A stretch of DNA of 64,000 bases, taken from IMG/VR virus record IMGVR_UViG_3300028920_000048; one strand, given 5' to 3'. Shown here one piece after another: positions 1 to 62,100 of the stretch (positions are counted from its first letter, which is position 1; every line of letters starts with the position of its first letter). The position numbers and the translations under genes are program-made. Origin of the DNA: a virus. The notes under the pieces were generated by a model. It did not search any database, was not told the origin of the DNA, and worked only from the letters and a program-made list of their open reading frames with translations.

Positions 1-1770
1 CACGGCGGCAATGACAACATCGAGCGAAACATCTTCAAAACTGGAGCAACCACACGCTTCCGAGCCGATATTCGTCTGACACGACAAAGCATCAACCCCC
101 GGACAACCATCCCACAAAATGACCGATGGTCTACCATAGGCCGCTGCAATACATGCCAGCCATGTACTAGGACCAATATAAAGACGAGAGAAAGCCACAG
201 CCTCACGGACAATACGCTGCTCCAAATAGCCACTCGCGCCAGAAACGCCATGTCCAAACGAAAAAACCAACCAACCGTTTGAAAGTAACCATCCAACAAG
301 CCTCGGCGCAACCCAGTCAGACCACCACTGCGGCAGACCGGACAACCATCCAGGCAACACGGCAACATCACGAGAAAAAAACTCCGACGGAATATCTAAA
401 GAGTCCATAGGCGGTTTCAAAACTGGTCTACATGGCACCGTTACACCAGCTTCAATACCTAGCAATCGCCCATACGCTTCAAACAACGACCCATCATACA
501 CATCTGGTAGATCAATCATGCCCGCACAAGACGAATCAACAAACTCAACACCTTTTATGAAATCTGAAAGCAATGAGCGAATCAAATCATCACCTGAGAC
601 TAGGCATAAACGACCAACCGACGGAACAACAGAAAGCGGAGCCGTCGCCAGCAAAGCCTTTGCCCTGTCCCTCGGAAGACGAACGACCCAAGCGTCGTCA
701 CCACGAGTCACATCAAGGCTCTGAACAAGCTCCGACGTGCCAGCACTTCTGTCCTCATGCACCAAATTGATCCTGCTCAACCTATCAATGCCATTAAGCT
801 TAGACTCCAAATCAGAAAGCTTCGCCAACGGATAGTCATTATACAAGGCAACCTCAACAAACAACCTCGCATCGGCTGGCGGCTCTCGAAGAGAAGCCAA
901 TCTGTACCACGACATAGCATCCTGAGTCTTTCCCATTGCTGAATACACGTACCCAAGCCCGCAATAAGGTTCTGCGAAACGATGATCTTCAGCCATCGCA
1001 CGATGAAACGCCCGTATAGCTTTCTCATACTGACGAAGCGTCAATTGACAACGACCAAGATACAAGAGTGCAAATAGCCTTTCTTCGGGCCAATCAGACC
1101 TGCTGACATACTGACGGTACATCTCCGCCGCTTTTTCCGGCTGATCGCCTTCACGATACGCATTGCCCAAATAAAAGCACGTTCGAGGATCTTGCCGCCC
1201 GCGCTCATAGTAATCCTTCTCCAGTATCGCAAGATTCCTTTGGACAGAACCAATCGTTTTCTTACCAGGCTTGTGATACACCTTGATGTCCTGACGGTAC
1301 ACCCTTGAATAACCCTGGGTCAACAAATACTCATGGCAGGCGTGCGTCTCATCAAAGACAATCCCACAATGGTTAGGAAACATTCTGACATGTTCCCATG
1401 CCACGCCCTGACTAACACACTGAAAGCTATATATCCTGTCCAAAGGTGAAGTTGCCCCAATTTCAACAATCTTGCCTGCACTCTCTGCATCGAAAACATC
1501 GTCACAATCGACCCAAATGACCCAGTCACCCACACACCTCTTGATCGCCTCATTCTTGGCTTTCCCGAACTCGAAGTCGCTAAAATGAGTATCCTGATCA
1601 AAGAACTCTGAGTCAAAGACATGTTGGGTGTAGTGTCTGGCAATCTCCTTTGTTGCGTCTGTGCTTCCGGTGTCAACAACCACGATGTCATCTGCGAAGA
1701 CTTTGACGCTTTCAAGACACCGAGCGATGTAATGCTCCTCATTCTTGGCAATGATCGCAACAGAGATCAA
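1..1770 (-). CDS. GT2 glycosyltransferase with TPR repeats and a C-terminal GT-B-like region (runs off the window edge; missing from the ORF track)
   Basis: Manual translation from TTG at 1770 (GAGG RBS upstream) is open to position 1: LISVAIIAKNEEHYIARCLESVKVFADDIVVVDTGSTD...WVIWVDCDD (GT2 with DxD), then TPR-like helices (FYLGNAYREGDQPEKAAEMY, EPYCGLGYVYSAMGKTQDAMSWY), then LYIGPSTWLACIAAAYGRPSV. Confidence 0.85.
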   Translation of the reverse strand, partial: MISVAIIAKNEEHYIARCLESVKVFADDIVVVDTGSTDATKEIARHYTQHVFDSEFFDQDTHFSDFEFGKAKNEAIKRCVGDWVIWVDCDDVFDAESAGKIVEIGATSPLDRIYSFQCVSQGVAWEHVRMFPNHCGIVFDETHACHEYLLTQGYSRVYRQDIKVYHKPGKKTIGSVQRNLAILEKDYYERGRQDPRTCFYLGNAYREGDQPEKAAEMYRQYVSRSDWPEERLFALLYLGRCQLTLRQYEKAIRAFHRAMAEDHRFAEPYCGLGYVYSAMGKTQDAMSWYRLASLREPPADARLFVEVALYNDYPLAKLSDLESKLNGIDRLSRINLVHEDRSAGTSELVQSLDVTRGDDAWVVRLPRDRAKALLATAPLSVVPSVGRLCLVSGDDLIRSLLSDFIKGVEFVDSSCAGMIDLPDVYDGSLFEAYGRLLGIEAGVTVPCRPVLKPPMDSLDIPSEFFSRDVAVLPGWLSGLPQWWSDWVAPRLVGWLLSNGWLVFSFGHGVSGASGYLEQRIVREAVAFSRLYIGPSTWLACIAAAYGRPSVILWDGCPGVDALSCQTNIGSEACGCSSFEDVSLDVVIAAV

Positions 1771-1773
1771 GCA

Positions 1774-2418
1774 TCACCTCTCGACCAACACACTCGTGAT
1801 ATTCACTTCCGTTTCACTCCAAGCCTTACGTATAATGTCCTCAAAATGACCCCACGCCAATGGCTCTGCCCGATTGTGGGCAAACCAATATGCCAATCCG
1901 GGCTTCGACAGAAGCCACAAATGCTCGTTCGGCTTGAAATGCCTCCAGTCCCGCAAAGACTCTGGATGCTCGGCACAAAACCACGACGGCAACTCAGGAT
2001 ATGAAATAAACGCCAAATCCCATTGGAGATCAAAAAGATAATCAATGTTCTTAAAGTGTTCAAGCACATCAGAAAGTACAACTAAATCCCAATAGGTATC
2101 CTCAAGTTCTTCCTTCGTGATCGACTCTCCACAAACATCATACGACACAATCGACTTAAAAGCCTTTTGACCTTGCATCATAAACTCGCCGTTGCCAGAG
2201 CCTATATCAACGACATGACATCTCTTCATCTCCCGAGAGCTAATATGAGATGCAAGCCAACCAATCCGAAGCCACGACATTGCAACGTCTGTGGACTGAG
2301 AAGCCTTATAGTCGTCATCGTATTCAAACGGCTCAGGATTGACCTGCCGCCACAAACTGGGCTTGGCTTCCTCATATACAGCGCCGTCAAGCTCGAATCG
2401 CCTGTCATCGTCAATCAT
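1774..2418 (-). CDS. Class I SAM-dependent methyltransferase
   Basis: VVDIGSGNG motif I and LVVLSDVLEHF motif; located in the glycan-modification cluster. Confidence 0.8.
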   Translation of the reverse strand: MIDDDRRFELDGAVYEEAKPSLWRQVNPEPFEYDDDYKASQSTDVAMSWLRIGWLASHISSREMKRCHVVDIGSGNGEFMMQGQKAFKSIVSYDVCGESITKEELEDTYWDLVVLSDVLEHFKNIDYLFDLQWDLAFISYPELPSWFCAEHPESLRDWRHFKPNEHLWLLSKPGLAYWFAHNRAEPLAWGHFEDIIRKAWSETEVNITSVLVER

Positions 2419-2419
2419 C

Positions 2420-2799
2420 CGATCAAACCCTGGTTTACCAAACCTGGAAAAACTTACCCAAGTTCAGAAGGGAGCCTCTCATCTCCCATAAAGAACGAGA
2501 AAACCTCTTCTCGTACTCCACCTGTACGACCAGTTGTAGGACAGGATTCGCCCAAGGGAGTCTCGCCCTTGCTAGTACCTATGGCAAGTCTTGAACTTGC
2601 TGCCAGTACCGGACCTGTGAGGTCGGCTTGTTTCGGTTTGAGAAAACAGTCCTCAAGCCACGAGTACGCCTTCTAAGTCAAAGCAGTCCCAAATTCTTCC
2701 TTCAAGGTTCAGCTTTGAGTTCTCTGACTCGTCCGACATAACCGTAAGATTTTCCAGATTTCTACAAGTTTTTATCTAGCTAATCAATCAGGCTCTTGA
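2420..2799 (-). ncRNA. Candidate structured non-coding RNA or leader (~380 nt, unassigned)
   Basis: No credible minus-strand ORF. Consecutive hairpins at 2470-2487, 2495-2514, 2521-2545, 2553-2571 and 2584-2600. Possible TTGATT-17-TAGAAA promoter near 2790-2760. Confidence 0.4.
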
Positions 2800-3630
2800 T
2801 CAGCACACATACTTATCATATTCCCGTTGAATGGTTTTGATACAATCCCTCGCACACTGGAGGTACTTTTCATGGTAGCCGTAGTTCTTTTCCATCGGCT
2901 CCATCAATCCACTCACATACGCCTCATCTTGCCAGTGTCCATGTAACATATAGACCGGCTCACCTTGGTGAGAATAAAGACCGTCATCGGTCTGTTTAAT
3001 GAACGTTTCTGGCTTCAACATCGTGTGGTGAATGTTCGTCCAAGAATAGGAACTAAGCCAGTACATCCGGGCTGACAAACCCATTGCCGCCGCAATCAGG
3101 TTAGGACAGCGCAAATCGTTTCCGCTCTGGTTAGTCCAAATTCTCTCCAAATAGTCATCAAACATGGAAGGATTGAAAAACGTCGGAACCGTACTAAATG
3201 TAGCGTGCACTTTCGAGAATCCATCAGGAACATCAATCCCGAACTCATCAAAATGATGCTGCTGAAAACGCAACATCGTGTTATCGGAGCACACAAGCAA
3301 AGTCCCGGCTTCTGCCATCCTGAAAATGTTGTCAATTGGTCGAATGAGCACCATATCAGCATCAAGCAAACCAACAACCTTGTACTGGCCGGCAAGTTGT
3401 CGAGCCAACTCAAACCTGAATGTCCGTATCCGGCGAAAGCTCGTATCGCACTCCGGCGCAAGCATGACATTGACAACCGCAATATCGTCAAACACGTCGT
3501 CGGGGAGGTCTCCTATCGTCGTTGCGTAAATTGCCGTATCCGGCATCCAAGTTGACAAGCTCTTGACCAACGCACGACCCTCGGCTTCGTATCCCCTCGT
3601 GACTGGGAAAATGAAAGCATAATCAGGCAT
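2800..3630 (-). CDS. GT-A fold glycosyltransferase (GT8-like)
   Basis: VGLLDADMVLIRPIDNIF DxD motif and C-terminal LHGHW; paralogous to 7081 and 7997. Confidence 0.7.
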   Translation of the reverse strand: MPDYAFIFPVTRGYEAEGRALVKSLSTWMPDTAIYATTIGDLPDDVFDDIAVVNVMLAPECDTSFRRIRTFRFELARQLAGQYKVVGLLDADMVLIRPIDNIFRMAEAGTLLVCSDNTMLRFQQHHFDEFGIDVPDGFSKVHATFSTVPTFFNPSMFDDYLERIWTNQSGNDLRCPNLIAAAMGLSARMYWLSSYSWTNIHHTMLKPETFIKQTDDGLYSHQGEPVYMLHGHWQDEAYVSGLMEPMEKNYGYHEKYLQCARDCIKTIQREYDKYVC

Positions 3631-4540
3631 CTACTGGCTCTCCGGTATCTTCATCTAGTTGCAATTCTGCCGTGTCTTCTTCTTGTTCTGACTCCGATTC
3701 TGGCTGCAACTCCGGCTCGGACTTTGCCATAATAGACCCCAACCAGCCGGAAACCGAACCATTGATATAGTCGCCCTTCAAGTCAACAATGGCAACCTTT
3801 TCCTTTGTATACGAAGAAATATCGTGTTCCTTCTGAAGGTAAAGCACCCTGTCAGGATACATCGACAGCGCCAAAGTCAAGGGACCGGAAGCAACACCAA
3901 TAAAGCATCGACACCGTTGAAGCAAGCCAATCAATGACGAAATCCTTGCCGAACAGCCCCGCACCGTGCTCGTAACACACGGGTATTTGACATTCATAGG
4001 ATTATGAAACATGTGTTGGTAATGCACCTCAATCGGCACAAGACCAGCACCAAGGATTTCATTCCATATCTGTCGTGCCGTGCGCTCATCACAATTGACG
4101 GACTGAGGCAATGCCGTGCCCTGAAAATGGACACCCACAAGCGGACTATCAAAGCTTGACAACTGCGCAAACTCTGACTTAATCTCCGCAGAATCAATGC
4201 CCAACTCCCGCTCACAACAATGTTCACTCTTGGTCACGCCAGAATTCTCAGCCATAAAGTAGTTCAACGAAAAAACCAAATCGTAAGCATCTTCATCCCA
4301 CTCCACCTTGCCGAAAATTTCTTCCTGACCGCTCTCGACGTACAGCGTGAAATCCACCTTCGGGTAAAGACGCACAAGCGCCTCATACGCCGGATAAAAC
4401 ATTATGGTATCGCCAAGACCGTGCCCGAAAAGAATCAGCACCTTTGCACCATCATAAAGGTGCTCAACCAGCTTCTTCTCCTTGAAGTCGTTAATCGCAT
4501 TGCTCTCTTTCGCCAACCGAGTATCTCCTTTCAACCTCAT
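3623..4540 (-). CDS. GT-B fold glycosyltransferase (GT9/heptosyltransferase-like)
   Basis: LILFGHGLGDTIMFYPAYEAL and FIGVASGPLTLA motifs; the real start may be TTG near 4516. Confidence 0.7.
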   Translation of the reverse strand: MRLKGDTRLAKESNAINDFKEKKLVEHLYDGAKVLILFGHGLGDTIMFYPAYEALVRLYPKVDFTLYVESGQEEIFGKVEWDEDAYDLVFSLNYFMAENSGVTKSEHCCERELGIDSAEIKSEFAQLSSFDSPLVGVHFQGTALPQSVNCDERTARQIWNEILGAGLVPIEVHYQHMFHNPMNVKYPCVTSTVRGCSARISSLIGLLQRCRCFIGVASGPLTLALSMYPDRVLYLQKEHDISSYTKEKVAIVDLKGDYINGSVSGWLGSIMAKSEPELQPESESEQEEDTAELQLDEDTGEPVDA

Positions 4541-5321
4541 AAGCCATCTCTACAACCATATTACGTCTTGACTCAATTGTATCAGGACACCGCACTGACT
4601 CTCCGTCCAGAAAAAGCCTTGAAGCTAGATTCAAGATTTCATCGTCGAAACCACAAACATACTCATCTTGGTCAATGTACTTCAACCACCTTGACATGAC
4701 CTTCATCTTGTTAGCCTGCCCATTATACTGTCTACGGTCGAAAGAACTTCCTCCGGCTTGCCCTGGCACCTTAAAAAGCCCATCGTTATTCGGACACTCC
4801 GGCAAACCGAGCCTCGCTTCTATGGAACGCCTATAGCCCTCTGAACTAAACCATCTGTTGTAGTTGATCTTCGCTGCCCACGACAAATAATCTGTGTCTT
4901 GGAGGAACTCTCTGGCGTAGACTTTCCAAAGCTCCGGCGGCGGCAAAGTAGGAGCCTGATTCCGGCTCGGCTTCGTCAATGTCTTCCACATCCTCAGCCG
5001 ACTGGCAAAAAGATTGAACGGGTCTCGAATCATTACAATACGGTCAACGCCAGCCGGACAACACAAGCCTGAAACCGCGTCGTGGACATCAAATTCACTT
5101 GAACTGAAATTGATATCCTCAAAACTTACCAAAGCCGCAAAACGATTATCACAACCGCTAAACCGCTCGCCGGGTATTCTACCGTTGTGATGATGCCACA
5201 AGCTCTTATCCCAATGCCAACCTACCCAATAAATGATCGCATGTTGCCCGCCACGACGCTGCCCAAGAAACAAGAAACAACGTTCATAAGTGGGAGTCGT
5301 CCTGTTCATCGCAAAAACCAT
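4491..5321 (-). CDS. Sulfotransferase-like P-loop protein
   Basis: LGQRRGGQHAII (5'-PSB-like) and MIRDPFNLFASR (3'-PB RDP..S-like) motifs; tandem paralogue of 5392. Confidence 0.55.
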   Translation of the reverse strand: MVFAMNRTTPTYERCFLFLGQRRGGQHAIIYWVGWHWDKSLWHHHNGRIPGERFSGCDNRFAALVSFEDINFSSSEFDVHDAVSGLCCPAGVDRIVMIRDPFNLFASRLRMWKTLTKPSRNQAPTLPPPELWKVYAREFLQDTDYLSWAAKINYNRWFSSEGYRRSIEARLGLPECPNNDGLFKVPGQAGGSSFDRRQYNGQANKMKVMSRWLKYIDQDEYVCGFDDEILNLASRLFLDGESVRCPDTIESRRNMVVEMAYEVERRYSVGEREQCD

Positions 5322-5391
5322 TCCTCAACTACCAAAGCCCTTATAGCAACCACCTGTCTGTTCTAAACCGCCCATATCCCCAACACAATTA

Positions 5392-6210
5392 CTACTCCGC
5401 TGACGATAAGGCTGTCCAGGGTGGGTATTTGGACTCAACCTCGAAAGCCATCTGCTCCACCAATTCCCGATGGGCGGTCACACTGGACGGGACTGATACC
5501 TTAAAACCATCCAGATACAAACGTGAAGCCATTGTTAAGACTTCTTCATCGAATGCCTTCACAAAGCCATCATCATTGAGAAAACCACACCATCTCGACA
5601 TCACCTGCATCTGATCCGCTTTCCCATCAAACTTGCGCTTGTCAAACGAACTTCCTTGACCCCAGTTCGTAACATCCTTCATCCCACGATCATTCAGCGT
5701 CAGTCCAAACTGCTCAGCAACGGACTGCCGGTAAGCCTTACATGAAAACCATTGATTGTAGCTAACAACAATCTTGTCCGGCAAATAACAGGTCTCACCA
5801 AGCGCCTCACGTGCGTACACCTTCCAGACGTCAACCGGAGTCATTTTCGTATTGGACTGAACACTTGCCCGATGCAAAGAATCAACCTTATAAATTTTCG
5901 ACCGACTCGCAAACATGTTAAACGGATCGCGGTGCATGAAAATCATGTGATTAGACACAGCATCGACACCACTCTCCTTAAAGAGTTCGGCAGGCTGACA
6001 TGACAGATTTCGGAAATCCCAGTCCTCAAAACTGATCAACATTACCGAGGCGTTTTTGTCCAGCTTCCGCCTCCCGACAGCCCTGCCCGGACGCCTGTTG
6101 TTGAAGTGCCGCCATTCATCGTCGTTCCAGTGTTTGAGCAACCAATTGATAATGCCGTGCTGACCACCACGACGCATCGAAAAGGTCAAAAACAACCGCT
6201 TAATCGGCAT
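5392..6210 (-). CDS. Sulfotransferase-like P-loop protein
   Basis: SMRRGGQHGII and MHRDPFNMFASR motifs; shares GSSFD.R...G.A..M.VMSRW with 4491. Confidence 0.55.
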   Translation of the reverse strand: MPIKRLFLTFSMRRGGQHGIINWLLKHWNDDEWRHFNNRRPGRAVGRRKLDKNASVMLISFEDWDFRNLSCQPAELFKESGVDAVSNHMIFMHRDPFNMFASRSKIYKVDSLHRASVQSNTKMTPVDVWKVYAREALGETCYLPDKIVVSYNQWFSCKAYRQSVAEQFGLTLNDRGMKDVTNWGQGSSFDKRKFDGKADQMQVMSRWCGFLNDDGFVKAFDEEVLTMASRLYLDGFKVSVPSSVTAHRELVEQMAFEVESKYPPWTALSSAE

Positions 6211-6258
6211 CCCAGCACCTCACCCTTCCAATGTTAATGTTCTGGAAACAGCCACACT

Positions 6259-6463
6259 GTCAACTACCGCCAGCACAAGGCATGGCGGCTTGCTCAATCC
6301 TACGAAGTAGGAGAGCATACGGGTGATTGACTGCACCCTGTTCCACTTACATGAGTGGAAAGAAAGTGATTATCTCTAATGTTATTTGCTGCATTTACAT
6401 CACTGTGCTCTGTATGACCACAACGAACATAAGACAACTACTGTCAATGCTCCAAGTTTGAGA
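6259..6463 (-). mobile_element. tnpB: IS200/IS605-family remnant: degenerate TnpB C-terminus plus right end encoding an omega-RNA scaffold
   Basis: Frameshifted SQTWS and VRCGHTEHSDVNAANNI (TnpB Zn-finger/RuvC-III DxNAA.NI). Followed by hairpins GGGTG-CAGTCAAT-CACCC, GCTC-TCCTAC/GTAGGA-TT-GAGC and CCGCCA/TGGCGG, ending GTAGTTGAC. Loop GTCAA can pair with terminal TTGAC. Confidence 0.75.
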
Positions 6464-7084
6464 CTATCTAATACGCCTCCAAAACCTGTAACCATGTCCT
6501 TTCATGCTCTTCTCACGATACGGCTTCCACTCGCCAGAAGCCTCCATATCGGCAAGCTCATCAAGCTGATCCTTTGTATCAGGATCATGTAAATACATCA
6601 AATCACAATACCGACGGGCATGTTTAATCGAATAAACCCTACCACTATCAGGTCCATCAACTAAACCAAGATCAAAATGCTCATCAAGATCGGCTGGTTC
6701 GCTATACCTGTTATCATGTTTAATTAGCTGGACTTGCTCGCCCATGCGTACCGTTTTACAAATACCAAACCAAACCGGATCGCACTCAATAGATACGATT
6801 CTCTTGATATTCTTCTCAAGCGCAAGAAGCTCAGTAGTCAATCCGGGACCATATTCGAGAACCGAACTAACTTGATGCTCCCGAACAAAAGCCACAAATT
6901 CGACCCAATGTCCACGATCTGGACGACCCGCTTGCCAAAGTATTCCAACGCCCTTCCCGGCAATAATCGAAGACATAGCCCGCTCAAGATAGTAGCGGCA
7001 CCTATTGCAAAGATTCCACGTAAATATTTGTTCTATCTTCGACTCATTAAAATCCAACTTGCACCAATCACAAATCATTATCAA
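6464..7084 (-). CDS. SAM-dependent methyltransferase-like protein
   Basis: VLEYGPGLTT motif I, RIVSIECD and LGLVDGP motifs. Confidence 0.55.
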   Translation of the reverse strand: MIMICDWCKLDFNESKIEQIFTWNLCNRCRYYLERAMSSIIAGKGVGILWQAGRPDRGHWVEFVAFVREHQVSSVLEYGPGLTTELLALEKNIKRIVSIECDPVWFGICKTVRMGEQVQLIKHDNRYSEPADLDEHFDLGLVDGPDSGRVYSIKHARRYCDLMYLHDPDTKDQLDELADMEASGEWKPYREKSMKGHGYRFWRRIR

Positions 7085-7983
7085 TCTCCCAATTGCGGAT
7101 TATGAACCGGACCCTTTTTCGTAAGCCACTCAATGCACCTTTTGAAACACTCAACGTTGTGCCGAGCATTTTCACGATAATGGTCCTGTTTCACATCCTC
7201 GACAAACTTTCTGCAAACACTTTCCATGTGCCATCTACGGTGTACAATGATCGCTCGCTCGTCTTTGTACGTAAGCATCGGTCGACCTTGATCATCTTCA
7301 GCCATGACCATCCTATCGAAATAATAGTCCGTAAAAACCCACAAATCATTGTTGAGCTGGATGACCCGCTCAGCCAGATTGTTCCGACAAACGGTCTTAA
7401 AAAGCGTCACCATGTCTCCGTAGGGCTCTTTCAAGCCCCATTCATAGACCTCTTCCATAAGCCACGCCCACTTGCTCGGAACGAAAAACAGTGGCATGTT
7501 GTGGAGCGAAGGACTGGCAGCACTACTCATCTTCTCCAAAGGCCAACTACCGTTGAGAATGTTCCGAAGCGGCACACCACGGGGATTTTGCGGCATAACA
7601 AGCTCGCCACTGCTGATCGCAAGTTCCATCTGCTTGTGGAAATTGCCCACAATAAACATATCAGTGTCCATAATCAGCACCGCATCATACTTGTCGGCAA
7701 TCCTCGGGATATACCTATACCGATAAAACCGTAGCTCCCATCCTGTCCGCTTGACTCCACTTTGGCTCTTTCTCTGCCTCTCAGAGTCCACAATATCAGG
7801 CCATCGTGTCAAAACCACACGATCAACAGCATCTAATTGGTCAAGATAGTCCGTTGGGACATCTTGATGCCCAATTAAGTGAATGTCAACGTCATTGTCG
7901 TAAGCCAATGCTCCGTTCACAATACAAGTTGTCAACGGGATCAACCCGTTCGAGAACGTTCCGACCAAAGCAAACCTTGCCAT
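7081..7983 (-). CDS. GT-A fold glycosyltransferase (GT8-like)
   Basis: RFYRY, VLIMDTDMFIV DxD motif and IVHRRW. Confidence 0.7.
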   Translation of the reverse strand: MARFALVGTFSNGLIPLTTCIVNGALAYDNDVDIHLIGHQDVPTDYLDQLDAVDRVVLTRWPDIVDSERQRKSQSGVKRTGWELRFYRYRYIPRIADKYDAVLIMDTDMFIVGNFHKQMELAISSGELVMPQNPRGVPLRNILNGSWPLEKMSSAASPSLHNMPLFFVPSKWAWLMEEVYEWGLKEPYGDMVTLFKTVCRNNLAERVIQLNNDLWVFTDYYFDRMVMAEDDQGRPMLTYKDERAIIVHRRWHMESVCRKFVEDVKQDHYRENARHNVECFKRCIEWLTKKGPVHNPQLGD

Positions 7984-7996
7984 TAAATTACTCCTT

Positions 7997-8887
7997 TTAG
8001 AAAAGCATACTGACGCTTTCCCACTTTACCAGACCATTATAATTGAACCAGTCCATCATTTTTCCAGCTATGACTCCACGTTTGCCTCTACGCTTTCGAC
8101 TCCAGTGAAATTTCCCATGAACAACACGAATACGACCAGCTTCACAAAACGCAAACGGCAAACCTTGCTTATCCACCCCAACTTCACCATTACCTAGCCC
8201 AAGACCCAACCACAAGTCCTTGTGAAGATGCACAACCTCGTCAGCCAACTCGTTCATCATAATCACATGGCTCACACCGACCATTTCATTGTAGCCAGTA
8301 TCCAGCGTGTACGCATACATCGAATCAAGCAACCAAGCCCATGATGAAGGAAAAATCACCGAATGACAAGAAAACGGACACACACCGGGCTTGCAAGCCT
8401 GAACAGGGTCAACAATATGGGTCCGATTAGGCTTCCACACTACCATGAATGGGACATCTGACGAGTCACACGCTGCATAGACATCCTTCAAGTCAGACAA
8501 AACAAAAGCATCACAATCGTAAATGGAAACCACATCATACGACCTCGCAAGCCACGCCGCATACTTGTAACGGCACGCCTGAACACACCAAAGCGGTCCA
8601 CGACGCAAACGCAATTCATCTTTCTCAATCAAACTATCATGACGAACAATATGCACACAGCCCAATGAGCGCAAAACCCGAAGATACATCTCCGGGAACT
8701 CTGGACTAACAAGTATGTGAATATCAATAGCCTTGCCATTGTACAGTAAACAACTATTCACAAAACTATTCAAGATTTCAGCAAAATCCGAAGTGGCCGT
8801 CACTACGGCAGCATAACGCCTACCTCGACTTGGTTCGTCTTCCCTTGTTCTTCTTTCTTCGCCTTCTCGGCTTTTTTTTTCTACCAC
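7997..8887 (-). CDS. GT-A fold glycosyltransferase (GT8-like); start uncertain
   Basis: CRYKY, SIYDCDAFVL DxD motif and VVHGKFHW; GTG start overlaps the upstream gene across an A9 run. Confidence 0.65.
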   Translation of the reverse strand: MVEKKSREGEERRTREDEPSRGRRYAAVVTATSDFAEILNSFVNSCLLYNGKAIDIHILVSPEFPEMYLRVLRSLGCVHIVRHDSLIEKDELRLRRGPLWCVQACRYKYAAWLARSYDVVSIYDCDAFVLSDLKDVYAACDSSDVPFMVVWKPNRTHIVDPVQACKPGVCPFSCHSVIFPSSWAWLLDSMYAYTLDTGYNEMVGVSHVIMMNELADEVVHLHKDLWLGLGLGNGEVGVDKQGLPFAFCEAGRIRVVHGKFHWSRKRRGKRGVIAGKMMDWFNYNGLVKWESVSMLF

Positions 8888-10118
8888 GTGATTGGTTCTT
8901 TTCCTTTATCCCTGATGCACTCTGCACAGTCTTCCTCTGCACAACAACCTTCGGCCTTTTGGCAATCTCGACATTGCTCACAGGTGAAATCTCATAGTTT
9001 AAGTTGTCCATATAAAACTTCACCAAGCGACAGACATCATCCGCAGTGATCATGTCCATACACTTGGCAATTGTTTGGCCTGTCGAAAGTTTTACAGGGC
9101 ACAAACAAAGCTCCTCATCCTTGTGGTCACCATCCCCAAGTGACATAACACGTGACTTCCAGCAACCACCAAGGTCACAGCACGGAAGAAGCCCACACGT
9201 GTGAATGAACTGTTGATTCGGTCCCTGCTGCCAGTGATTCGGTTCACGACCTCCAGCAATAACAATACAAGCTCTTGAATGTCTCTGAAACCTTGGGTGC
9301 GGCGGAACGGCGTACGCCAGCATCATGGGCAAACTCACTGGAGTAATAACACCCCAAGAATTGTAGACTAAGCGAATGAGCTGCCGCAAATCGGTCTGAC
9401 CCACCATGTTGATCAAATTCTCACCCTTTAGCTCCGGGTGCACATGATTAGGATGATCAAGACCAATCTGAACGAACGTCAACTCAGGGAACCGATCTAT
9501 GATCTTTTGGTAGCGATCAAAAGCCCACTGTTTCGCCGTGTAGTCCGTTTTGTAACCAGCATCAATAATCCAGTATGGCACATTACGCTTGACCTTCTCA
9601 AAGACGGCGCTGTACCAGAAATGCTCCTGTTCCCTGATATAGATAAAGCTCTGAAAAAATGTCGGAACAATCGGAAGCCGAAGCTTGGTCTGAAGATCAA
9701 TCATCATGCCATTAAGGTAGTGGTACGGCTTCTGATTGCTCTGGTGGATTGTATCGTACGTCATGTCAATCACCATGTCAACATCCGACTCGTGAAGCGG
9801 AGTAATATACGGATTGCCCTCGAAGATAGCAGGACAAGTGGTCCTTACATCGGTCAAAAACCGACCCGGATATGTCTCGTGAAGAGACTTCAAAGCAAAT
9901 GCCATGATCACGACATCGCCAGGTGACTGAAAGTTCTTGAGAATCAACTTCGCTTGCCCCTCTGCCGAAACGCCGCCCCCGCTTGACTGGCTGAAAGAAC
10001 TTGCCTGACACACTGTTTGATCAACAACAGCGCCGTCTATGACGGGCTTGACCAAATGCCAACCACTCTGAGGCTTAAACTCCTCAACTTCCTTCGGGAC
10101 AATAACAAGTTTGCTCAC
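8820..10118 (-). CDS. GT9/ADP-heptose transferase-like glycosyltransferase with Cys-rich C-terminus
   Basis: QSPGDVVIMAFALKSLHETYPG, KQWAFDRYQ, NMVGQTDLRQLIRLV and VITPVSLPMMLA. Start reassigned to GTG 10118, which overlaps the upstream stop (GTGA). Confidence 0.8.
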   Translation of the reverse strand: MSKLVIVPKEVEEFKPQSGWHLVKPVIDGAVVDQTVCQASSFSQSSGGGVSAEGQAKLILKNFQSPGDVVIMAFALKSLHETYPGRFLTDVRTTCPAIFEGNPYITPLHESDVDMVIDMTYDTIHQSNQKPYHYLNGMMIDLQTKLRLPIVPTFFQSFIYIREQEHFWYSAVFEKVKRNVPYWIIDAGYKTDYTAKQWAFDRYQKIIDRFPELTFVQIGLDHPNHVHPELKGENLINMVGQTDLRQLIRLVYNSWGVITPVSLPMMLAYAVPPHPRFQRHSRACIVIAGGREPNHWQQGPNQQFIHTCGLLPCCDLGGCWKSRVMSLGDGDHKDEELCLCPVKLSTGQTIAKCMDMITADDVCRLVKFYMDNLNYEISPVSNVEIAKRPKVVVQRKTVQSASGIKEKNQSRGRKKKPRRRRKKNKGRRTKSR

Positions 10119-11176
10119 CGTTTGTACCCCCACGGGAGTCCATACGGGCACACAAAGTTGACACCTCCCTCGGTCGCAGGATAAAGCCTCAGAATGCCCT
10201 TCCGCCAGCCTATTCTGCGGCGATCCCTGCAAATCTGGCAACTCTTCCTCGCCTCGCATTCATCAGTGTCAAAAAAGGAATCAACAGCAACGGACTCGAC
10301 GGTCGTCTTGGGAACCTCTGGCATCTCAATTGGCACAGACTCGACTTTTTGAGCCGAGTCAACAGTCCTTTCATCTGGGTGTAAGACAGAAACCGGCTGA
10401 TCAGCGCTCAACTCATCCAGACCGGCTTCGGCATCCAGCCGACCTCCGATTTTCAACTTCTCGGACAAATCTAACAAATGATCGTATACAGCCAGGTCAT
10501 TCACATCTCCGCCCTTTTCGTTGCTTTGCTTATCTGACGGAGGCACCGCAAAAACAGCACCAAAAAGAGGTCCAACTGAAGCACGAACACTGTCCAAAGC
10601 ATCTACCATCTTCAAGCCGACAAAAGCTTCATTGAGCAAATCATGCTTCCTGGCCATAAGCATGAGCTTTTGAATGACGACTGGAACAGACTCGCCGCCT
10701 TTCTCTGGCGGAACCATAAGCTGAGCGTGCAAAGCTGCTCGAAGCAACTTGACGGCTTCCCTCGGCGAAGCCACAAGCACATATCGGTCAAAAACATCAC
10801 CAATATCAGCCGGACAAGCAACCTGAGCCCGTGGTCCGCCTCCGGCGATGAAACGATCCCCCAAGAGCTTCTTGCAGTGATCAATCAACGACTGACAATT
10901 GAAAAGCGGCTTACTGTTCCATCCCCCGCCCGCACAAGCATCACAAAAGCCTTCCTCGACCTTGACATCAAATCCTACCGCCCTTGACAACAGACCACAA
11001 TGCGTCGAACCGTTATGCCAACGACGAAGTACAAACCGACACTTGGCAGCCGGTCCAGCCCCGGAAGCAAACGGATTGTCCCCCGAAGGCTGGACCTTGT
11101 TGCCCTCGTTTCGCACCTGCTCACCAATCTTAGCAAGCATCTTCATCTTGTCCTCATTACCCTGATTTTCAGCCAT
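10115..11176 (-). CDS. Hypothetical protein with Cys-rich segments (possibly fibre-associated)
   Basis: 353-aa ORF with good RBS; C-terminal CEARKSCQIC...FVCPYG. Confidence 0.6.
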   Translation of the reverse strand: MAENQGNEDKMKMLAKIGEQVRNEGNKVQPSGDNPFASGAGPAAKCRFVLRRWHNGSTHCGLLSRAVGFDVKVEEGFCDACAGGGWNSKPLFNCQSLIDHCKKLLGDRFIAGGGPRAQVACPADIGDVFDRYVLVASPREAVKLLRAALHAQLMVPPEKGGESVPVVIQKLMLMARKHDLLNEAFVGLKMVDALDSVRASVGPLFGAVFAVPPSDKQSNEKGGDVNDLAVYDHLLDLSEKLKIGGRLDAEAGLDELSADQPVSVLHPDERTVDSAQKVESVPIEMPEVPKTTVESVAVDSFFDTDECEARKSCQICRDRRRIGWRKGILRLYPATEGGVNFVCPYGLPWGYKR

Positions 11177-12416
11177 TCCTAAAGTCTCCGTTCAGAATCT
11201 CATCAACAACCGATGTCAAGCCATACTTCTCGGCAATCGACATAACCTGACTCACTATTGTACCTATTTCGTGACCGCCATTCTCACCAGAGAGCTTCGA
11301 CTGCTCCACAAAAACATTCTTAAGAAATTTCGACGCAACTTCACTGCCCGAACGCTCCAAGTGCTGTCTAATCAATTCGTCCACTTCATCCCAATCAACT
11401 GGCACAACTATCCTTACGTCACGCACTAATGGAACCACAACATCCTTATTTCCGCCTTGAAAACTAGAACTAGAACTAGAACTAGAACTAGAACTAGAAC
11501 TAGAACTAGAACTAGAACTAGATGAGCCACAAGCCTTAACCGGTGGAACTACGGCTCCCTTACCTCCAGCACTAGAACAGGGACAATTAAAAGGACTACC
11601 TGGAAGACCGGGAGAACTAGAAGGACCAGAACAATCATCAATGCCTACACATTCTTCATTTGAGCGATCTAAATAGACATAAAAACAATATGGATCAGCA
11701 TAACTATAATAAAGCCATGTATTATAAGTTCTACTAGATTCTTCACAGACTAAATTACTATAATAGGGACCACCCCAACTATCTGTATCACAATCATAAG
11801 TTGCAGCCCATTCATAAACACATCGACCTGAAGGACAAGGACAAGCACTCGGGTCTGGATCAAGTGGCACAAAACTCGGAGTAGACGAACACTGAATGGC
11901 ACTCTCACATGGTTCACCGCAGTAATAATAATAGTATTCACAAGCACTTGACGAATAAACTGGGTCTAGCCAACCTTCAGAACTAACACAAGAATCACAG
12001 CCCTGAATTAACCAACCCACAGGTATAAAAGAACTCGTTTGACAATCATAAATTGTCAGATACTGCCAAATACACCGATTTTCAGCACTCTCTGAAGAAC
12101 TAGAACTAGATGAACTACATGAACATTCCAGATTTTGAACTCTTGTGTTAAAGTCAGTAAACGGCGTCAACGTAATACAGCTTCCATCATAATCAATATC
12201 TCCGCCATCACTGTTGATCGTGCAATCGTCTCCTTCAAGTGCTCGCAAATAACCAACCCAATTCTTAAATTTGCCATAAGCATCTGCGACACACTCACCA
12301 CCTGCAATAAACGCAAGATCAGAACTAATAGAACAACAACTACAAGAAGCTCTAAATGCCTCCAAATCTGAAAAATAGCCGTTAATCTGCGCTCTGTGAG
12401 TTTTAACACATCCCAT
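11169..12416 (-). CDS. Cys-rich, poly-Ser, low-GC protein (putative fibre or receptor-binding module)
   Basis: Two related Cys/Trp/Tyr-rich repeats (RCIWQYLTIYDCQT and RCVYEWAATYDCDT), a 22-Ser tract and AT-rich codons. Confidence 0.65.
   Translation of the reverse strand: MGCVKTHRAQINGYFSDLEAFRASCSCCSISSDLAFIAGGECVADAYGKFKNWVGYLRALEGDDCTINSDGGDIDYDGSCITLTPFTDFNTRVQNLECSCSSSSSSSSESAENRCIWQYLTIYDCQTSSFIPVGWLIQGCDSCVSSEGWLDPVYSSSACEYYYYYCGEPCESAIQCSSTPSFVPLDPDPSACPCPSGRCVYEWAATYDCDTDSWGGPYYSNLVCEESSRTYNTWLYYSYADPYCFYVYLDRSNEECVGIDDCSGPSSSPGLPGSPFNCPCSSAGGKGAVVPPVKACGSSSSSSSSSSSSSSSSSSSSSFQGGNKDVVVPLVRDVRIVVPVDWDEVDELIRQHLERSGSEVASKFLKNVFVEQSKLSGENGGHEIGTIVSQVMSIAEKYGLTSVVDEILNGDFRNG
11462..11521. 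repeat. (AACTAG)x10 hexamer microsatellite encoding poly-Ser
   Basis: Ten exact tandem copies read directly. Confidence 0.95.
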
Positions 12417-12431
12417 AATCTGTCACACTCA

Positions 12432-13718
12432 TCAGAACCGAGGACAATCAGTCGTGTAGGTTATCGTGATCGTCTTAGTTATAGCATCGTAGCTGCAATT
12501 GAGCGAAACAACAAATGAATCACCAGAACCGGCAGAAGACGAACCACTGCAATTGATAGCAACCACTCCACTGTCGCCATCATCCCCCTGATTCCCCTGT
12601 GGCCCTTGCGGACCCTGCCCCCCATCATTGCCCTGTGGTCCTTGATCCCCTTGTGGTCCTTGATCCCCTTGTGGTCCTTGATTCCCCTGTGGCCCTTGAC
12701 TCCCCTGTGGCCCTTGCGGTCCTTGTGGCCCTTGACTCCCCTGTGGCCCTTGCGGTCCTTGTGGCCCTTGACTCCCCTGTGGACCTTGCGGACCTTGTGG
12801 ACCTTGCGGTCCTTGTGGTCCTTGTGGACCTTGCGGACCTTGCGGACCTTGCGGACCTTGCGGACCTTGCGGACCCTGCGGACCTTGCGGACCTTGTACC
12901 CCCGAAGCCCCAGTCGGTCCAGTCGGTCCAGTCGGTGCTGTCGGTCCAGTCGGCCCGGTCGGCGCAGACGCCTGAAGATACCAACCATCCGTTACAATAC
13001 TCGGCCTAACATCTTCTTGATTGTCAACATTATCTTTTACATCATCTTGCCAAGGAACGTTTCTGACAATTATGGGTTTCTTGAAAACAGGAACCGCGTC
13101 ATACCGACTCAAATCGCCCTGCGAGTAACTCAGCAATCCTCCAGACACAAAGCCATTAACAATCTCACCAGTCGCATAACACAATACACGCTTCGCATCA
13201 TCAATAGCTTTCAACTCATAATCAATAATACCCAGAGGGTAAATTGATGACTCACTATAAGTAAAGCTCGTATAGTCCTTATTAACATTTGTCCAGAACC
13301 ACATTCCAATCTGATTGGACACAGGATCATATATGAGTCTTGGAGCATATACCTCACGAAGTGGCCTCATTGATAATGGTAGTGAACCACTCTGTGTTGT
13401 GGCATAACATACAGTCCTAACACCACCAATCACTTCACCATCAACGACTCGGGCATACGTCAAAATTCGATCACTTTGTGACGGCCTATACCCAGCCGCC
13501 ATACTGTACAGATGTTTACCGGCAGGAAGACCAGCTGGCCCCGTTACGCCAGTCGGAGCCGCCTCAACAATATCCATACCATTACCACTGATACTTCCAG
13601 AGGCGTTATTTGTAATGTACTCAGGCGCAAAACACAGCAGTTCCCGACTGCTGACCATAATAACTTCACAGTTTCTTTCGATATGAAAAAATGTAACTGG
13701 ATTAGTTGGTGCTGACAC
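12432..13718 (-). CDS. Collagen-like tail fibre protein
   Basis: APTGPTGPT segment followed by a long Gly-X-Y run dominated by GPQ; lies downstream of the tail-tip genes. Confidence 0.8.
12570..12965 (-). repeat. 9-nt tandem repeats encoding (Gly-X-Y)n
   Basis: GGTCCGCAA, GGGCCACAA and related units read directly. Confidence 0.9.
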
Positions 13719-13726
13719 AACAAGTC

Positions 13727-14803
13727 CTACCTACAAAAAATAACGATCCTGATCGGTATGCCAACCCCACCAGTGTTGTACACGATAGCCTTGTGAGCAG
13801 CATCAACGACTCCGTCATCGGAGTACCCGACGATAAACTCACCCGCTTCTCCGTCAACAGACTGTCCATTCACCGCCCTGCGCTGAACTTCGCACCACAT
13901 GATCTCAAACTTCGACTCGACCTCGACAGGCGTCCCGTCCTTGCCGTTCGTGAACGTGTCAATCGCCACAACACACTTTGCGATACCTTTTTGGTTAGAC
14001 TTTTCAACCAAAGCATTCTTGCTAACGACCAACTCGTTAATGGCTCCCACAAGCGTCTGATTCTTGGTCAAAAGACTCTCATCACCGTCACCTGACAACA
14101 ACACTTGCAACCGCTCATCGGCAAACCTAAGCTCACCATCCGAAGCTATCGTTGGTGCACCCACACCACGCCTATCTGAGATAAAAACTACAGGTCCATT
14201 TTCATCTTCGCCGTCAATGTCAAACCTTAAGCCCTTCCTCACCGTCATATAATCCTGAACTTGCTCGACGCCATGAGGATTGGTCCAATCACCGGCATGT
14301 AAAGCCATGTTGTTGCTATAGACCTTGCCATCAGGATAAATATCCAATTCAACACTGTCAGGATTACGAAGGTCCAACACTGCCAAATACAAGACCAAAC
14401 CACGCTTGTTGTCCATTGGACGACGTGCATTCAACTCACGAAAATGTGACGGGTCTTCAGGCAACTTGGAGTTCCACTGAATATAGAGATGATGTTCAAA
14501 ACCCGGTTTCAAACCGCTCCAAACACACTGACTACTCCTATATACGAAACAACCGTTTACAATGCCCATCAAGGCAGGAAGAGGACCAGTTCCGCCCAAC
14601 AAAACTTCATACAAGCCAGTTTCATTATCCTTAAAGACATCAAAACCGCCTTCCTCAATCACACAACATCGAACGCCATGCGTAGCAGCACGAAGTTGGT
14701 TTTCTATGATCAAAGCCTTCTTCCGCTCCGACTTCGACGTAATAATTTCTCCATCAGCCGGATACGGAATACCGAAAAACGGTGTTTTCTTCTTGTATGA
14801 CAT
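13727..14803 (-). CDS. Putative tail-tip or fibre-anchoring structural protein
   Basis: ATG 14803 with GGAG RBS; position between hub and collagen fibre; HxxDWTNPH motif typical of fibre bases. Confidence 0.5.
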
Positions 14804-14808
14804 GATAT

Positions 14809-15027
14809 TCACTCCACCTTGCAGCGACCACCAACATGGCTCTCGCCGCAAACAAAAGAACCGCCAACATCCGACTTGTCTTCAACCACGATCTGATCTG
14901 CGGCACTGGTTGCCTTTACTTGAGAAAGCGTCTCGTGACCACGAATCGTTCCCTGCACAATCATTCGCTCGACCACGTTCATAAGAGGACCGAGCCCTGT
15001 TCTCGCAAACCCACTTCTCGACATCAC
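14809..15027 (-). CDS. Small hypothetical protein
   Basis: AAGGAG RBS directly after the upstream stop; fills the gap. Confidence 0.5.
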   Translation of the reverse strand: MMSRSGFARTGLGPLMNVVERMIVQGTIRGHETLSQVKATSAADQIVVEDKSDVGGSFVCGESHVGGRCKVE

Positions 15028-59121: not shown

Positions 59122-62100
59122 TCAATCTAACGCACTCTGCACTATACGTTCTGCGATATCCGAAAGATGTTGACGGCGCAACTCTTCTCTGGCAAGCCGA
59201 ACTGCCATCATCCCCCCGCAATCCGCCACACGAAGCCCCCGAACCCTACTCGCATATCTCAAGCCACCACCCGTATATTCTCCAGCCGAAACAAGAACCG
59301 GCTGTGAATCTTCCCCAATAGAAACCAAGTGATTGATGACTGCACCGCGAAACGCCGGACTTTCAACCCATGAAGCTTCAATAAATCTCACAGATGTTGG
59401 ATCGCCAACTCGCTTCCCCGTGACGGGATCAATATAAGACCGGCCACAAAGCTCGGCAACAATCCGTCTGACGCCATTCTCGTCCTTGAAATACTCCCCG
59501 AGCTGATGTCTGACATGCTCGCACTCATCATTGTCGTCCAGAGACTCGTGCCCACACCTTGAGCATTGCAAAATCTCTGCAACGCAGTTATGCACAGCCA
59601 CGTCCCCAGCAATAAACGAGTGATCGCCAGCATCATTGACAACATGAAGATTGTTTACAAAATAACACCCACCCACGGGATCATTCGCTTTAACTCTGAC
59701 AAGCATATATCCATCAAAACACGAAATGCGTTCCTTCGACACTGGTTGTTGTCTAAATTTTCGTGTATAGCCTTCAAGTCGAATCGCCCAACTCTTACGT
59801 GTATTTACATGCCAGAAAGGCTTCCTGTCCTGCATTTTGTATGGACCCGAAACTGAAGCAGGCACACCAACGAAACGTAACATCGTCAAAACCTGTTGCG
59901 ACAAAAAAGGACTGGTCGACACCGTAGTAAAACGACTATCATCAACACGACAATGACCATCCCCATCAATGTAAGCTCCAATAATCTCACACAACGATTC
60001 ATCATCAAGAAGCAACACCTCCGAAGAAAACCGCTTCATATCACAGTGCTCACCACACATACTTTGCAACCAGACAGCCAAATCGCTATTATGCACTACA
60101 ACTCTTGTGCTCTTGCCACATTCACGATTTCTGGACTGTACGTACACTTTCTCTAGTTCAATACCTTCAGCATCAACACAAGACTTTACATCATCAACCA
60201 AATAACCTTCATCCTGCGAAAACGTAAACTCCACAGCCCGTGGCAAACTATGCTCATCTTTTTGAAGGTTCCCATCAGCCGCATACAATCCAAGCAGCCT
60301 ACAACGACTTTTCGCCCACACAGTACGCTCTTGCTCGGGACGACCAAGTGGAACAGCTACAAAATCTCCGACTCTAAGCTCTTCCGCCGCAACCCACTCA
60401 AATACCGGATGTTGCTCTTGCAAAACCGCAACAGATTGCACCTTGGGGTTTGTGTTGCAATGAGTCTGATAACAACTACTTGAACACCACTCTCTCATAA
60501 GTGTATCCAATGATCCCGCTCGTCCTCTTGGTAGTTCCTTACCACAACCCTTGCACTTGTCATAACCTCTCAAAGTCCAATACGGGTGCTCTTTAGTCAC
60601 ATAAGTATCTGGACGACCCACCAATGACAGCCTTCGCAATTCTCCATCCGAACACAAACGCCTACGCTTTGATTCAACCGTACCGACACCGCCAGTATGC
60701 GTAACCACGCTCGCCCCAATAGGGACATCTTCCACACACATCTGTGTGCCATCAGCAAGTCTCACAAGCGTACCATCAAGATGGCAGCCCATCGAAAGGG
60801 TGCTCAACTCCCCACTGGCAATGCGACGACACAAACCAATGTGAATACGATCTGTTTGGACAAGGATATCACAATACCAGACATTAGCCTTGCCGCCTTT
60901 CTTCCCCTCATAAACCACCGGACGAAGCACTGCGTCGATCACTCGACCCTTGCTCAATTCCGGGATTTGGACATGTTCATAGTAATTGTAAGCTCCGATG
61001 AAGGAGCGAAACGTCGACAACAATACCGGATTACTCCATGCGTTTGCATTGCTGTTGACAAGTTCATCACACGGAGACTTGATGTAGTAACCGTTGTCCT
61101 CGGTCTCTACAGAGCAAACAATCGTACAGTTATGCGTCGCCACACCTTCCACGACATAACTTTCATCTTCTTCAACCGAGAGATTATGAATATAACCTTC
61201 ATACTGGGAAACACCCTTTTTGTTGACCCTCGTAACGACTCGGCCAGCAACTTTCCGTCTACGACACACTTTGTCAGCGACAACAATCGTGGACTTGCCC
61301 ACCCAATTTTCAAAACCAAACTCCTCGGAGTTTTTAGCAATGAAAGACGGCATAATCTTCAACGTGTATTCTGTCCTCTTCCTATGCTTTGGTCTCCGAT
61401 ACAAATTCGACTCTATACCACAATTAGACGCAACGATTTGAGCCTGTTCCGCCAACGTCTGTGATACTGTCACGCCGCTATCGCCCCGAAACCAACATGC
61501 CAACAACTCTCTCTGTTCGGCCAAGTCCCAATCAAAAACTTCTCTGGCGATCCTTTTCCCATAACACTTAGAGCCTCCAAGAGCCAACAACTTATCTGCA
61601 AGCACCTTGTCCTTGACATCAATAACAACGCAATTAGAGTCGGGTCGCCTATCCGCAATGTGTGGTTTAGCACCGGTCAAACGCTCAAGAATACTGCACA
61701 CCTCAGTAACATATTCTTCTTCGTCCCCGGAAAACGCAAAGAAAATGCGATTAAATACACCATAATCACTCGCCTGCCTGCAAGACGTTTGCGAAACCCA
61801 ACCCTCGGCAAGATAATAGCCAAGCAATCTCGCCATGTCACTTCCAACATTGACCCCACAACTTTTGTAAATACCCAAAGCCACGTAATCGCCTACATCA
61901 AGGCAACATGAGTCCCGCCACTCAAAGGAATCCAAATCATGCCGAAACTGATCAAGTCTCTGTGCATAATCTGGACTATGCGGTGAACCATAAACCCTGT
62001 TCTGATGTCCAAGAACAAACGATCTTTTCCTCTTACAGTTTACGGACGCCCCGCAACCACAAACACAAGTCTTATGCACTTTGACTGCATAAAACGGGTG

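Follow-up and report, generated by a model that had tools for sequence, protein, structure and literature searches.

A phage gene cassette of predicted glycosyltransferases and methyltransferases conserved beside poly-serine genes, with a sulfotransferase-fold pair: a possible pathway for fibre glycosylation

The 64,000-nucleotide stretch of the viral record IMGVR_UViG_3300028920_000048 analysed here (the window), part of a 101,369-bp metagenome contig (ENA ERZ27252253), carries ten genes for predicted glycosyltransferases, methyltransferases and sulfotransferase-fold proteins close behind its fibre genes, which raises the question of what a phage would modify with them. An earlier note on this DNA had suggested a methylated and sulfated glycan on the virion. 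We found that the core of these genes is a cassette conserved in other phages and repeatedly located beside genes for poly-serine proteins, and we hold it an evenly balanced possibility that the phage itself encodes a stepwise cytoplasmic O-glycosylation of poly-serine fibre proteins, followed by methylation and sulfation.

All long open reading frames (ORFs) of the window, and every window gene located below, lie on the minus strand. Along transcription, tail-module proteins are followed by a 374-residue protein, a collagen-like fibre protein, a poly-serine protein, a 353-residue protein and the ten enzymes, which are tightly packed or overlapping from position 10151 down to the window edge (position 1) in the order H-G-F-E-[D-C]-B-A-MT1-GT2TPR. 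The classes that the earlier note had given them, namely a family 2 glycosyltransferase with tetratricopeptide repeats (GT2-TPR), three GT8-like and two GT9-like glycosyltransferases, two sulfotransferase-like proteins and two methyltransferases, were supported by Pfam, profile and fold evidence. Two of the ten (GT2-TPR and MT1) passed Pfam, and the other eight, without a significant Pfam, PHROG or NCBIfam match, were assigned through profiles and folds.

A search of IMG/VR viral contigs with the B family returned 17 loci, 13 of which were distinct after dereplication, and in these loci five or six genes (MT1, H, B, F, sometimes E, and A) occur in the same order on one strand. H is the most widely shared member, and homologs of MT1 are present in 16 of the 17 loci. 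The window contains the cassette genes in rearranged form and has gained over this core G (a duplicate of F), the sulfotransferase pair and GT2-TPR. Eight of the 13 distinct loci have, at most 200 nt from the cassette and in its orientation, an ORF with several serine runs; among the remaining five, four end at a contig edge beside the cassette and the fifth (L024/L025) adjoins a 982-residue fibre-like gene. By comparison, such an ORF was present in none of 16 distinct control loci of 20 kb each, which hold sulfotransferase genes without the cassette. A loose WSN codon pattern for poly-serine was used as a rough control only, as it matches many unrelated periodic sequences; judged by eye, the Ser/Thr-rich tracts that it marked in huge-phage contigs totalling 1.86 Mb numbered no more than three. 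The proposed link between the enzymes and a poly-serine fibre gene is thus supported by a conserved cassette beside poly-serine genes in many phage lineages.

The neighbouring ORFs vary in size and position. In the L031-L035 class, whose contigs carry a P22-type portal, poly-serine ORFs of more than 2,100 to 2,780 residues (39-52% Ser, approximately 1-8360) lie directly upstream of MT1 and repeat six or seven serines followed by Phe or Cys, some of them running off the locus. They rank among the most serine-rich long ORFs that we have encountered. These giant ORFs use all six serine codons, and selection for serine therefore acts on the protein. In L034, the cassette is placed between the giant poly-serine gene and a terminase with a P22-type portal. 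L036 has a 988-residue ORF (42% Ser) upstream of the cassette and three more poly-serine ORFs downstream; its cassette comes after a weakly tail-fibre-like gene (phrog_18512, 3.7e-5), which is itself followed by a poly-serine gene. Two poly-serine ORFs are located directly downstream in L026, and one on each side in L037, where a Mu-type portal gene and the major head protein gene precede the cassette and the poly-serine genes likewise follow that of the major head protein.

Two further loci, L010 and L012, are a minimal version of the system, in which one or more sulfotransferase genes, a single H-type GT9 gene and several poly-serine tracts are arranged compactly inside structural genes. The tracts belong to an ORF of 112-122 residues (46-70% Ser) and to a protein of about 255 residues with a serine tail; L010, which lies in a 57-kb genome with terminal repeats that is rated complete, has three of them. 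The short poly-serine ORFs (L010:10065-10430 and L012:12182-12517) were observed directly after the sulfotransferase genes and before a 421-residue protein, and they may be separate poly-serine proteins or a frameshifted N-terminus.

In the window, the proposed acceptor is a Cys-rich poly-serine protein of 415 residues (11169-12416), located two genes upstream of H and the only protein of the 64 kb with at least two serine runs on the coding strand. One run comprises 8 serines (12093-12116) and the other, a TCT/AGT hexamer repeat (11463-11525), comprises 21 by our count, not the 22 given earlier. Upstream of it lies the collagen-like fibre protein (12432-13718; Pfam Collagen 1.4e-18), with 41 G-X-Y triplets after APT/GPT repeats, which matched PHROG tail-fibre families in hits driven by its collagen repeats and whose Thr-rich tract is a possible second acceptor. 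The enzymes had been described as contiguous with the fibre genes; they are indeed co-oriented, but one gene (10115-11176) separates the poly-serine gene from the first transferase. Its product of 353 residues is Cys-rich, with several CxxC-type motifs, and showed no family match and no homolog in the cassette loci.

The putative glycosyltransferase H (8820-10151; a start at 10151 or 10118 is more likely than one at 10259) is 44% identical (2e-89) to a protein of L010 (L010:12526-13530) that scores 35.2 bits on the Pfam GT9 model PF01075 against a cut-off of 22. It also matches Atlas GT9 clusters, and its family profile matches WaaF among structures at 0.005. In the C-terminal part of the H family, C319, C338 and C353 are invariant and C313 and C314 near-invariant. 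B (3623-4516) belongs to a family of 142 homologs (50-60% identity, about 255 residues) without a Pfam domain, and its AlphaFold2 (AF2) model (pLDDT 89) gave GT9 enzymes in all of the top eight VIA rows (Z 12.6-14.2), with WaaF at 14.2, TibC at 13.8, WaaC at 13.2 and 3tov at 12.6, followed by other GT-B folds at 11.8 or less. Neither H nor B passes the Pfam GT9 model directly, phmmer of H against the PDB returned no match, and BLASTP of H against B revealed no similarity beyond an N-terminal G-D motif. Both are assigned to GT9 as predicted members, H via its 44%-identical homolog and B via its modelled fold.

TibC and AAH, of the BAHT family, are cytoplasmic GT9-related GT-B enzymes that hyper-glycosylate Ser, not Thr, in repetitive proteins, and TibC, a dodecamer with a four-Cys iron finger and an N-terminal beta-barrel, heptosylates autotransporter repeats (PMC4358343). 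TibC is among the top fold matches of B, and the Cys cluster of H is, by sequence, reminiscent of the iron finger; on the other hand, the fold scores of B do not separate TibC from the lipopolysaccharide (LPS) heptosyltransferases. Some members of the B family (P0063, P0104, P0136) are about 430-490 residues long and include a Methyltransf_24 domain (PF13578), a fusion that therefore ties the compact GT9-fold enzyme to methylation. We also observed that the tail of H (8820-8990) is strongly basic and rich in Arg/Lys, that of B (3623-3720) strongly acidic and rich in Glu/Asp, and that in the H homolog of L041 it is the N-terminus that bears a basic, low-complexity stretch; the opposite charges of the H and B tails might serve contact between the two proteins or substrate binding.

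Three putative GT8-like enzymes accompany them. F (7081-7983, DTD motif) has an Atlas model with TM-scores of 0.65-0.70 to the clusters of PF01501 (GT8) and PF03407 (Nucleotid_trans). G (7997-8887, DCD motif) is a paralog 27% identical to F (E 4e-22), with a start between 8803 and 8887, as the gene caller chose 8803 but the region alignable with F reaches farther upstream. A (2800-3630, DAD motif), a predicted GT-A glycosyltransferase, aligns with F over its full length (BLASTP 7e-6) and has homologs in cassette loci at E 1e-21 to 1e-27. None of the three has a Pfam match of its own. A six-sequence profile of F, G and A, in which the DxD is invariant, matched GT8 structures overall at E 0.0017-0.07; over the N-terminal 120 residues, which include the DxD, it matched 5gvv (GT8) at 0.0017 and glycogenin at 0.007-0.08.

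The best PDB match, 5gvv, is presumably GlyE, a GT8 enzyme of the serine-rich-repeat adhesin pathway. In these Gram-positive adhesins, glycosylation is started by GtfA/GtfB and extended by GT8 enzymes such as GlyE. That pathway resembles the one proposed here in its Ser-rich acceptors, its stepwise cytoplasmic O-glycosylation and its extension by GT8. It differs in that neither a GtfA/GtfB (GT4) pair nor an accessory Sec system was seen here, and in that the phage tracts are near-pure poly-serine with Phe or Cys spacers as opposed to SxSx repeats.

GT2-TPR (1-1770) is cut by the window edge; on the full contig it has 603 residues and runs 13 codons further. It comprises a GT2 domain (residues 2-187; Glycos_transf_2, PF00535, 5e-20, 72 bits against a cut-off of 23) and TPR repeats (about 186-300; TPR_1 and TPR_2 above their cut-offs), and its C-terminal half has no match to the PDB or to the fusion protein of L005. 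Its best PDB match is the glycosyltransferase domain of GmaR (E 1.9e-22), followed by two peptide glycosyltransferases, SunS (1e-12) and 7msk. By sequence it qualifies as a GmaR-like GT2-TPR protein whose closest solved relatives act on proteins or peptides, and a protein-directed activity of its own is predicted. GmaR, the O-GlcNAc transferase of Listeria flagellin, has its glycosyltransferase domain followed by TPR repeats, which have been proposed to recognise the protein substrate (PMC9638930). Like the window protein, it begins with a GT2 domain of about 180 residues, and its substrate is a filament protein, which it modifies in the cytoplasm; in contrast, its C-terminal half is an anti-repressor domain, whereas that of the window protein matches nothing.

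As for methylation, MT1 (1774-2418) is a predicted class I S-adenosylmethionine (SAM) methyltransferase with matches to Methyltransf_23 (PF13489; 1.1e-8, 35.4 bits against a curated cut-off of 27) and to the methyltransferase family phrog_6564 (1e-10). E (6464-7078), an optional cassette member with homologs in five cassette loci, is probably a SAM methyltransferase; it has a Cys4 motif in its N-terminal part and an invariant motif I (LEYGxGLxT), and its matches to RrnaAD (0.006, 16 bits) and to the structures 3cvo (0.013) and 3g5l (0.018) are weak and below threshold.

C (4491-5309) and D (5392-6210) are paralogs (41% identical, E 5e-66) for which the models predict the fold of sulfotransferases dependent on 3'-phosphoadenosine 5'-phosphosulfate (PAPS), and a corresponding activity is predicted. 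The AF2 model of D (pLDDT 85.5), built from an alignment with homologs, had PAPS sulfotransferases as its top 38 Foldseek matches and sulfotransferases in all of its top 50 VIA rows (Z 10.2-12.1 over 176-226 aligned residues), including olefin-synthase and CurM domains, SULTs and tyrosylprotein sulfotransferases (TPSTs). Among Swiss-Prot models the matches were NoeE, TPST2 and carbohydrate sulfotransferases (CHSTs), with one P-loop nucleotide-binding protein at rank 3 of 30 rows, of which sulfotransferases make up nearly all the rest, and the Atlas model agrees. A kinase reading of C and D was rejected, as the top 50 VIA rows contain no kinase; the sulfotransferase-like character claimed earlier for these RRGG/RDP proteins, against which a kinase fold had been set beforehand as the contrary outcome, was upheld.

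In an alignment of C and D with 15 homologs, R14, G16, H18, E62, R94-D-P, N98, S102 and a G-S-S-F-D motif are invariant or near-invariant, and C keeps R14, G16, H18, E62, R94-D-P and S102. Among 149 family representatives, the conservation of R14, G16, H18, E62, R94, D95, N98 and S102 is 98-100%, and all eight residues are present in C and D. R14-x-G16-x-H18 and R94-D-P-x5-S102 are likened to the canonical PAPS loops by position and spacing only; the family shares with NoeE, CHSTs, Stf0 and TPST the fold (Z 10-12), and its R-[ST/G]-G-x-H motif, like the 5'-phosphosulfate loop, and its R-D-P-x5-S motif, at the canonical spacing of a 3'-phosphate motif, may correspond to theirs. We know of no counterpart in known sulfotransferases for the invariant H18 and G-S-S-F-D.

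The D-type family is large, with 3,769 representative clusters at 50% identity (E up to 1e-3) and no Pfam model; D alone as the query found nothing in viral contigs, so that an alignment-based search was needed. In IMG/VR it is found mostly in huge phages of 200-527 kb. The domain is fused to GT32-like (L001), TPR and GT9 (L005, P0273), GT8 (P0148) and GT2 (P0178) domains, as well as to TPR with GT41, the O-GlcNAc-transferase family (P0244, 3.8e-57), and to Stf0 carbohydrate sulfotransferase domains. Among its immediate neighbours in 14 other viral loci are methyltransferases, GT1 enzymes, canonical Sulfotransfer_3 proteins, UDP-galactopyranose mutase, a sugar epimerase/dehydratase and UDP-glucose dehydrogenase.

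Starting from these enzyme classes, cofactor motifs and domain fusions, and from the cassette and its association with poly-serine genes, we infer the acceptor, the sequence in which the steps follow, the nature of the sugars, the chemistry of sulfation and the location on the virion. The main acceptor would be the poly-serine protein at the end of the tail/fibre block. During late expression, soluble transferases would add single sugars from host nucleotide sugars to serine hydroxyls of the unassembled fibre, in a pathway that would need no lipid carrier, flippase or oligosaccharyltransferase. The chain would probably be started by the H-type GT9, the best candidate because H alone is common to the minimal systems L010 and L012, and extended by B and the GT8-like F, G and A; MT1 and E may methylate the glycan, and C and D, as a lineage-specific addition, may place on it sulfate from host PAPS. 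GT2-TPR might add a further sugar directly to the protein, which it would recognise through its TPR repeats. The product would cover a virion fibre as a mucin-like brush, methylated and anionic. The wider proposal that several tailed-phage lineages share a mobile kit for making such mucin-like poly-serine fibres, sulfated here and in the 57-kb phage, is offered tentatively, and we rate it somewhat below an even chance.

The enzyme block itself agrees in several respects with a soluble route: no transmembrane helix is predicted in any of the ten enzymes, and the block is without a flippase, polymerase, priming transferase or oligosaccharyltransferase. Among known systems, Freeman and colleagues (2023, Cell Host Microbe 31:1216; cited in PMC12801897) are said to have described virion glycosylation in mycobacteriophages of the Che8, Corndog and Myrna type. 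As in those phages, transferases are encoded among the structural genes, and the target, here as a proposal, is the virion's own proteins. The mycobacteriophages differ in their transferase families and in their acceptors, which are the C-termini of capsid or tail-tube proteins versus the proposed poly-serine tracts; the window also has two methyltransferases and two sulfotransferases, and its system is known from genes.

Several observations weigh against poly-serine fibre glycosylation followed by sulfation. The glycan, its sulfate and their place on the virion are, for this phage, all read from genes, and the poly-serine protein has no recognised virion domain in Pfam or PHROG. Position 15 of the phosphate loop is Gly in C and D versus Ser/Thr in 89% of the family; heparan sulfate 3-O-sulfotransferases have Gly-Gly at the same loop position. 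C, D and 15 homologs showed no match to the Pfam sulfotransferase models PF00685, PF13469 and PF09037, a 17-sequence profile had none in the PDB or Pfam, and phmmer of D had none in the PDB; since this sequence-level match is lacking, which sets them apart from NoeE, CHSTs, Stf0 and TPST, the membership of C and D in the superfamily holds only at the level of fold and motif. A promoter and terminator scan gave consensus counts not above those of shuffled sequence and no signal of an operon boundary. Gene lists covering 8 kb to the left of the window, the flank in which the earlier note had advised looking, and 10 kb to its right contain no PAPS or nucleotide-sugar genes, and donors would therefore have to come from the host; likewise, no donor-synthesis gene was seen in about 82 kb inspected or tool-listed, a span in which window positions of about 27-59 kb were not scanned for them. 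In L041/L042 the cassette lies among signalling and DNA-methylase genes, with no poly-serine ORF within 10 kb. Lastly, GT8 and GT9 are classical LPS-core families: B ties LPS heptosyltransferases with TibC (Z 14.2 versus 13.8), and the H profile matches only WaaF.

These last points lead to the rival that survives best, in which the enzymes would modify lipid A-core or another surface glycan at the inner membrane face, by transfer of heptosyl, hexosyl, methyl and sulfo groups, so as to block superinfection or to stop progeny from sticking to debris, and the poly-serine genes would be unrelated neighbours. In favour of such remodelling of host LPS stand the membership of GT8 and GT9 in the LPS-core families and fold scores that do not separate TibC from WaaF/WaaC, which are top fold or profile matches of B and H; moreover, work on cyanophages reads large sets of glycosyltransferases as host-surface modification (PMC12801897), and the cassette of L041/L042 without a nearby poly-serine gene fits this. 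We nevertheless consider envelope remodelling unlikely, since it leaves unexplained the repeated adjacency to poly-serine genes in unrelated phages, the placement inside structural modules, and both the GmaR/SunS-like GT2-TPR and the fusions of the sulfotransferase domain with TPR and GT41. The L041/L042 cassette is accompanied by a PfkB-family kinase (L041:13296-14228). The same family includes the heptose-7-phosphate kinase domain of HldE, and the kinase after the cassette therefore gives a hint, as a lead only, of ADP-heptose as the GT9 donor.

Slightly less probable still, the poly-serine protein could be glycosylated but not part of the virion, for example a mucin-like protein released or bound to the cell during infection. 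The poly-serine proteins lack recognisable virion domains, and a giant protein with 52% Ser would be unusual for a structural fibre; yet in the window the gene immediately follows the collagen-like and tail genes in the same orientation, neither a signal peptide nor a transmembrane segment was seen in its product, and poly-serine genes follow the major head protein in L037 and, in one case, the weakly tail-fibre-like gene in L036. We regard as improbable a direct sulfation of poly-serine hydroxyls by C and D (protein O-sulfation) parallel to glycosylation. Tyrosylprotein sulfotransferases do rank with the best matches by structure (Z 11.4-11.9), and the minimal loci L010 and L012 hold only a D-type sulfotransferase, one GT9 and poly-serine tracts, but the scores of NoeE, CHSTs and small-molecule sulfotransferases are just as good, and the D-type domain is repeatedly fused to glycosyltransferases and neighboured by sugar-nucleotide enzymes. 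Hypermodification of phage DNA with glycosylated and methylated bases against restriction is very improbable: phage glycosyltransferases are known to glycosylate DNA bases (PMC13326640), and the replication module starts directly downstream, but the genes seen beside the cassette included neither a base-hydroxymethylase nor a related gene, and the GT8, GT9, GmaR-like GT2-TPR and sulfotransferase families and the poly-serine association point elsewhere.

Regarding the wider setting, the large tail-module proteins lie at 24448-15037, one of them with a weak PHROG tail match. The same phage occurs in SRR8554435 as well. Left of the window, the contig gene list shows the last 13 codons of GT2-TPR, a 162-residue ORF and then a replication module (SNF2 helicase with an intein, DnaB, primase and sigma factor); because this module starts just beyond the left edge, the enzyme block is the last block of the late, structural arm. 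The junctions in the enzyme block are overlaps or gaps of 3-82 nt, except for one of 381 nt before MT1 and one of 253 nt before the sulfotransferase pair. The latter is a non-coding gap (6211-6463) with several hairpins, and Rfam found no match on window positions 1-15000 at E up to 1. As it coincides with the point at which the window departs from the conserved cassette order, the gap may be a scar of the insertion of the sulfotransferase pair. Beyond the left edge of the window and at window positions 59122-62511, we further observed a LAGLIDADG domain in a DNA methyltransferase-like gene and intein/homing-endonuclease domains in the SNF2 helicase (1,062 residues) and in a 1,129-residue protein.

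To our knowledge, phage-encoded virion glycosylation has been experimentally demonstrated only in some mycobacteriophages, and the literature searched yielded no paper that deals with phage sulfotransferases or that pairs poly-serine phage proteins with glycosyltransferases. New here is a conserved cassette of predicted glycosyltransferases and methyltransferases tied to poly-serine genes across numerous uncultured phages. If poly-serine fibre glycosylation holds true, self-glycosylation would be a widespread phage trait, for which clonable enzyme-substrate pairs are named, and two large families, the D-type sulfotransferases and the B-type compact GT9 proteins, would gain a testable function. 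On the wider and more tentative proposal of a shared mobile kit, the sulfated virion glycoprotein would be the first from any bacterial virus, and it might imitate sulfated polysaccharides that the marine host of the phage binds. A sulfated, methylated fibre brush could affect adsorption, particle stability and stickiness in sediment and, more speculatively, recognition by hosts that forage on sulfated glycans.

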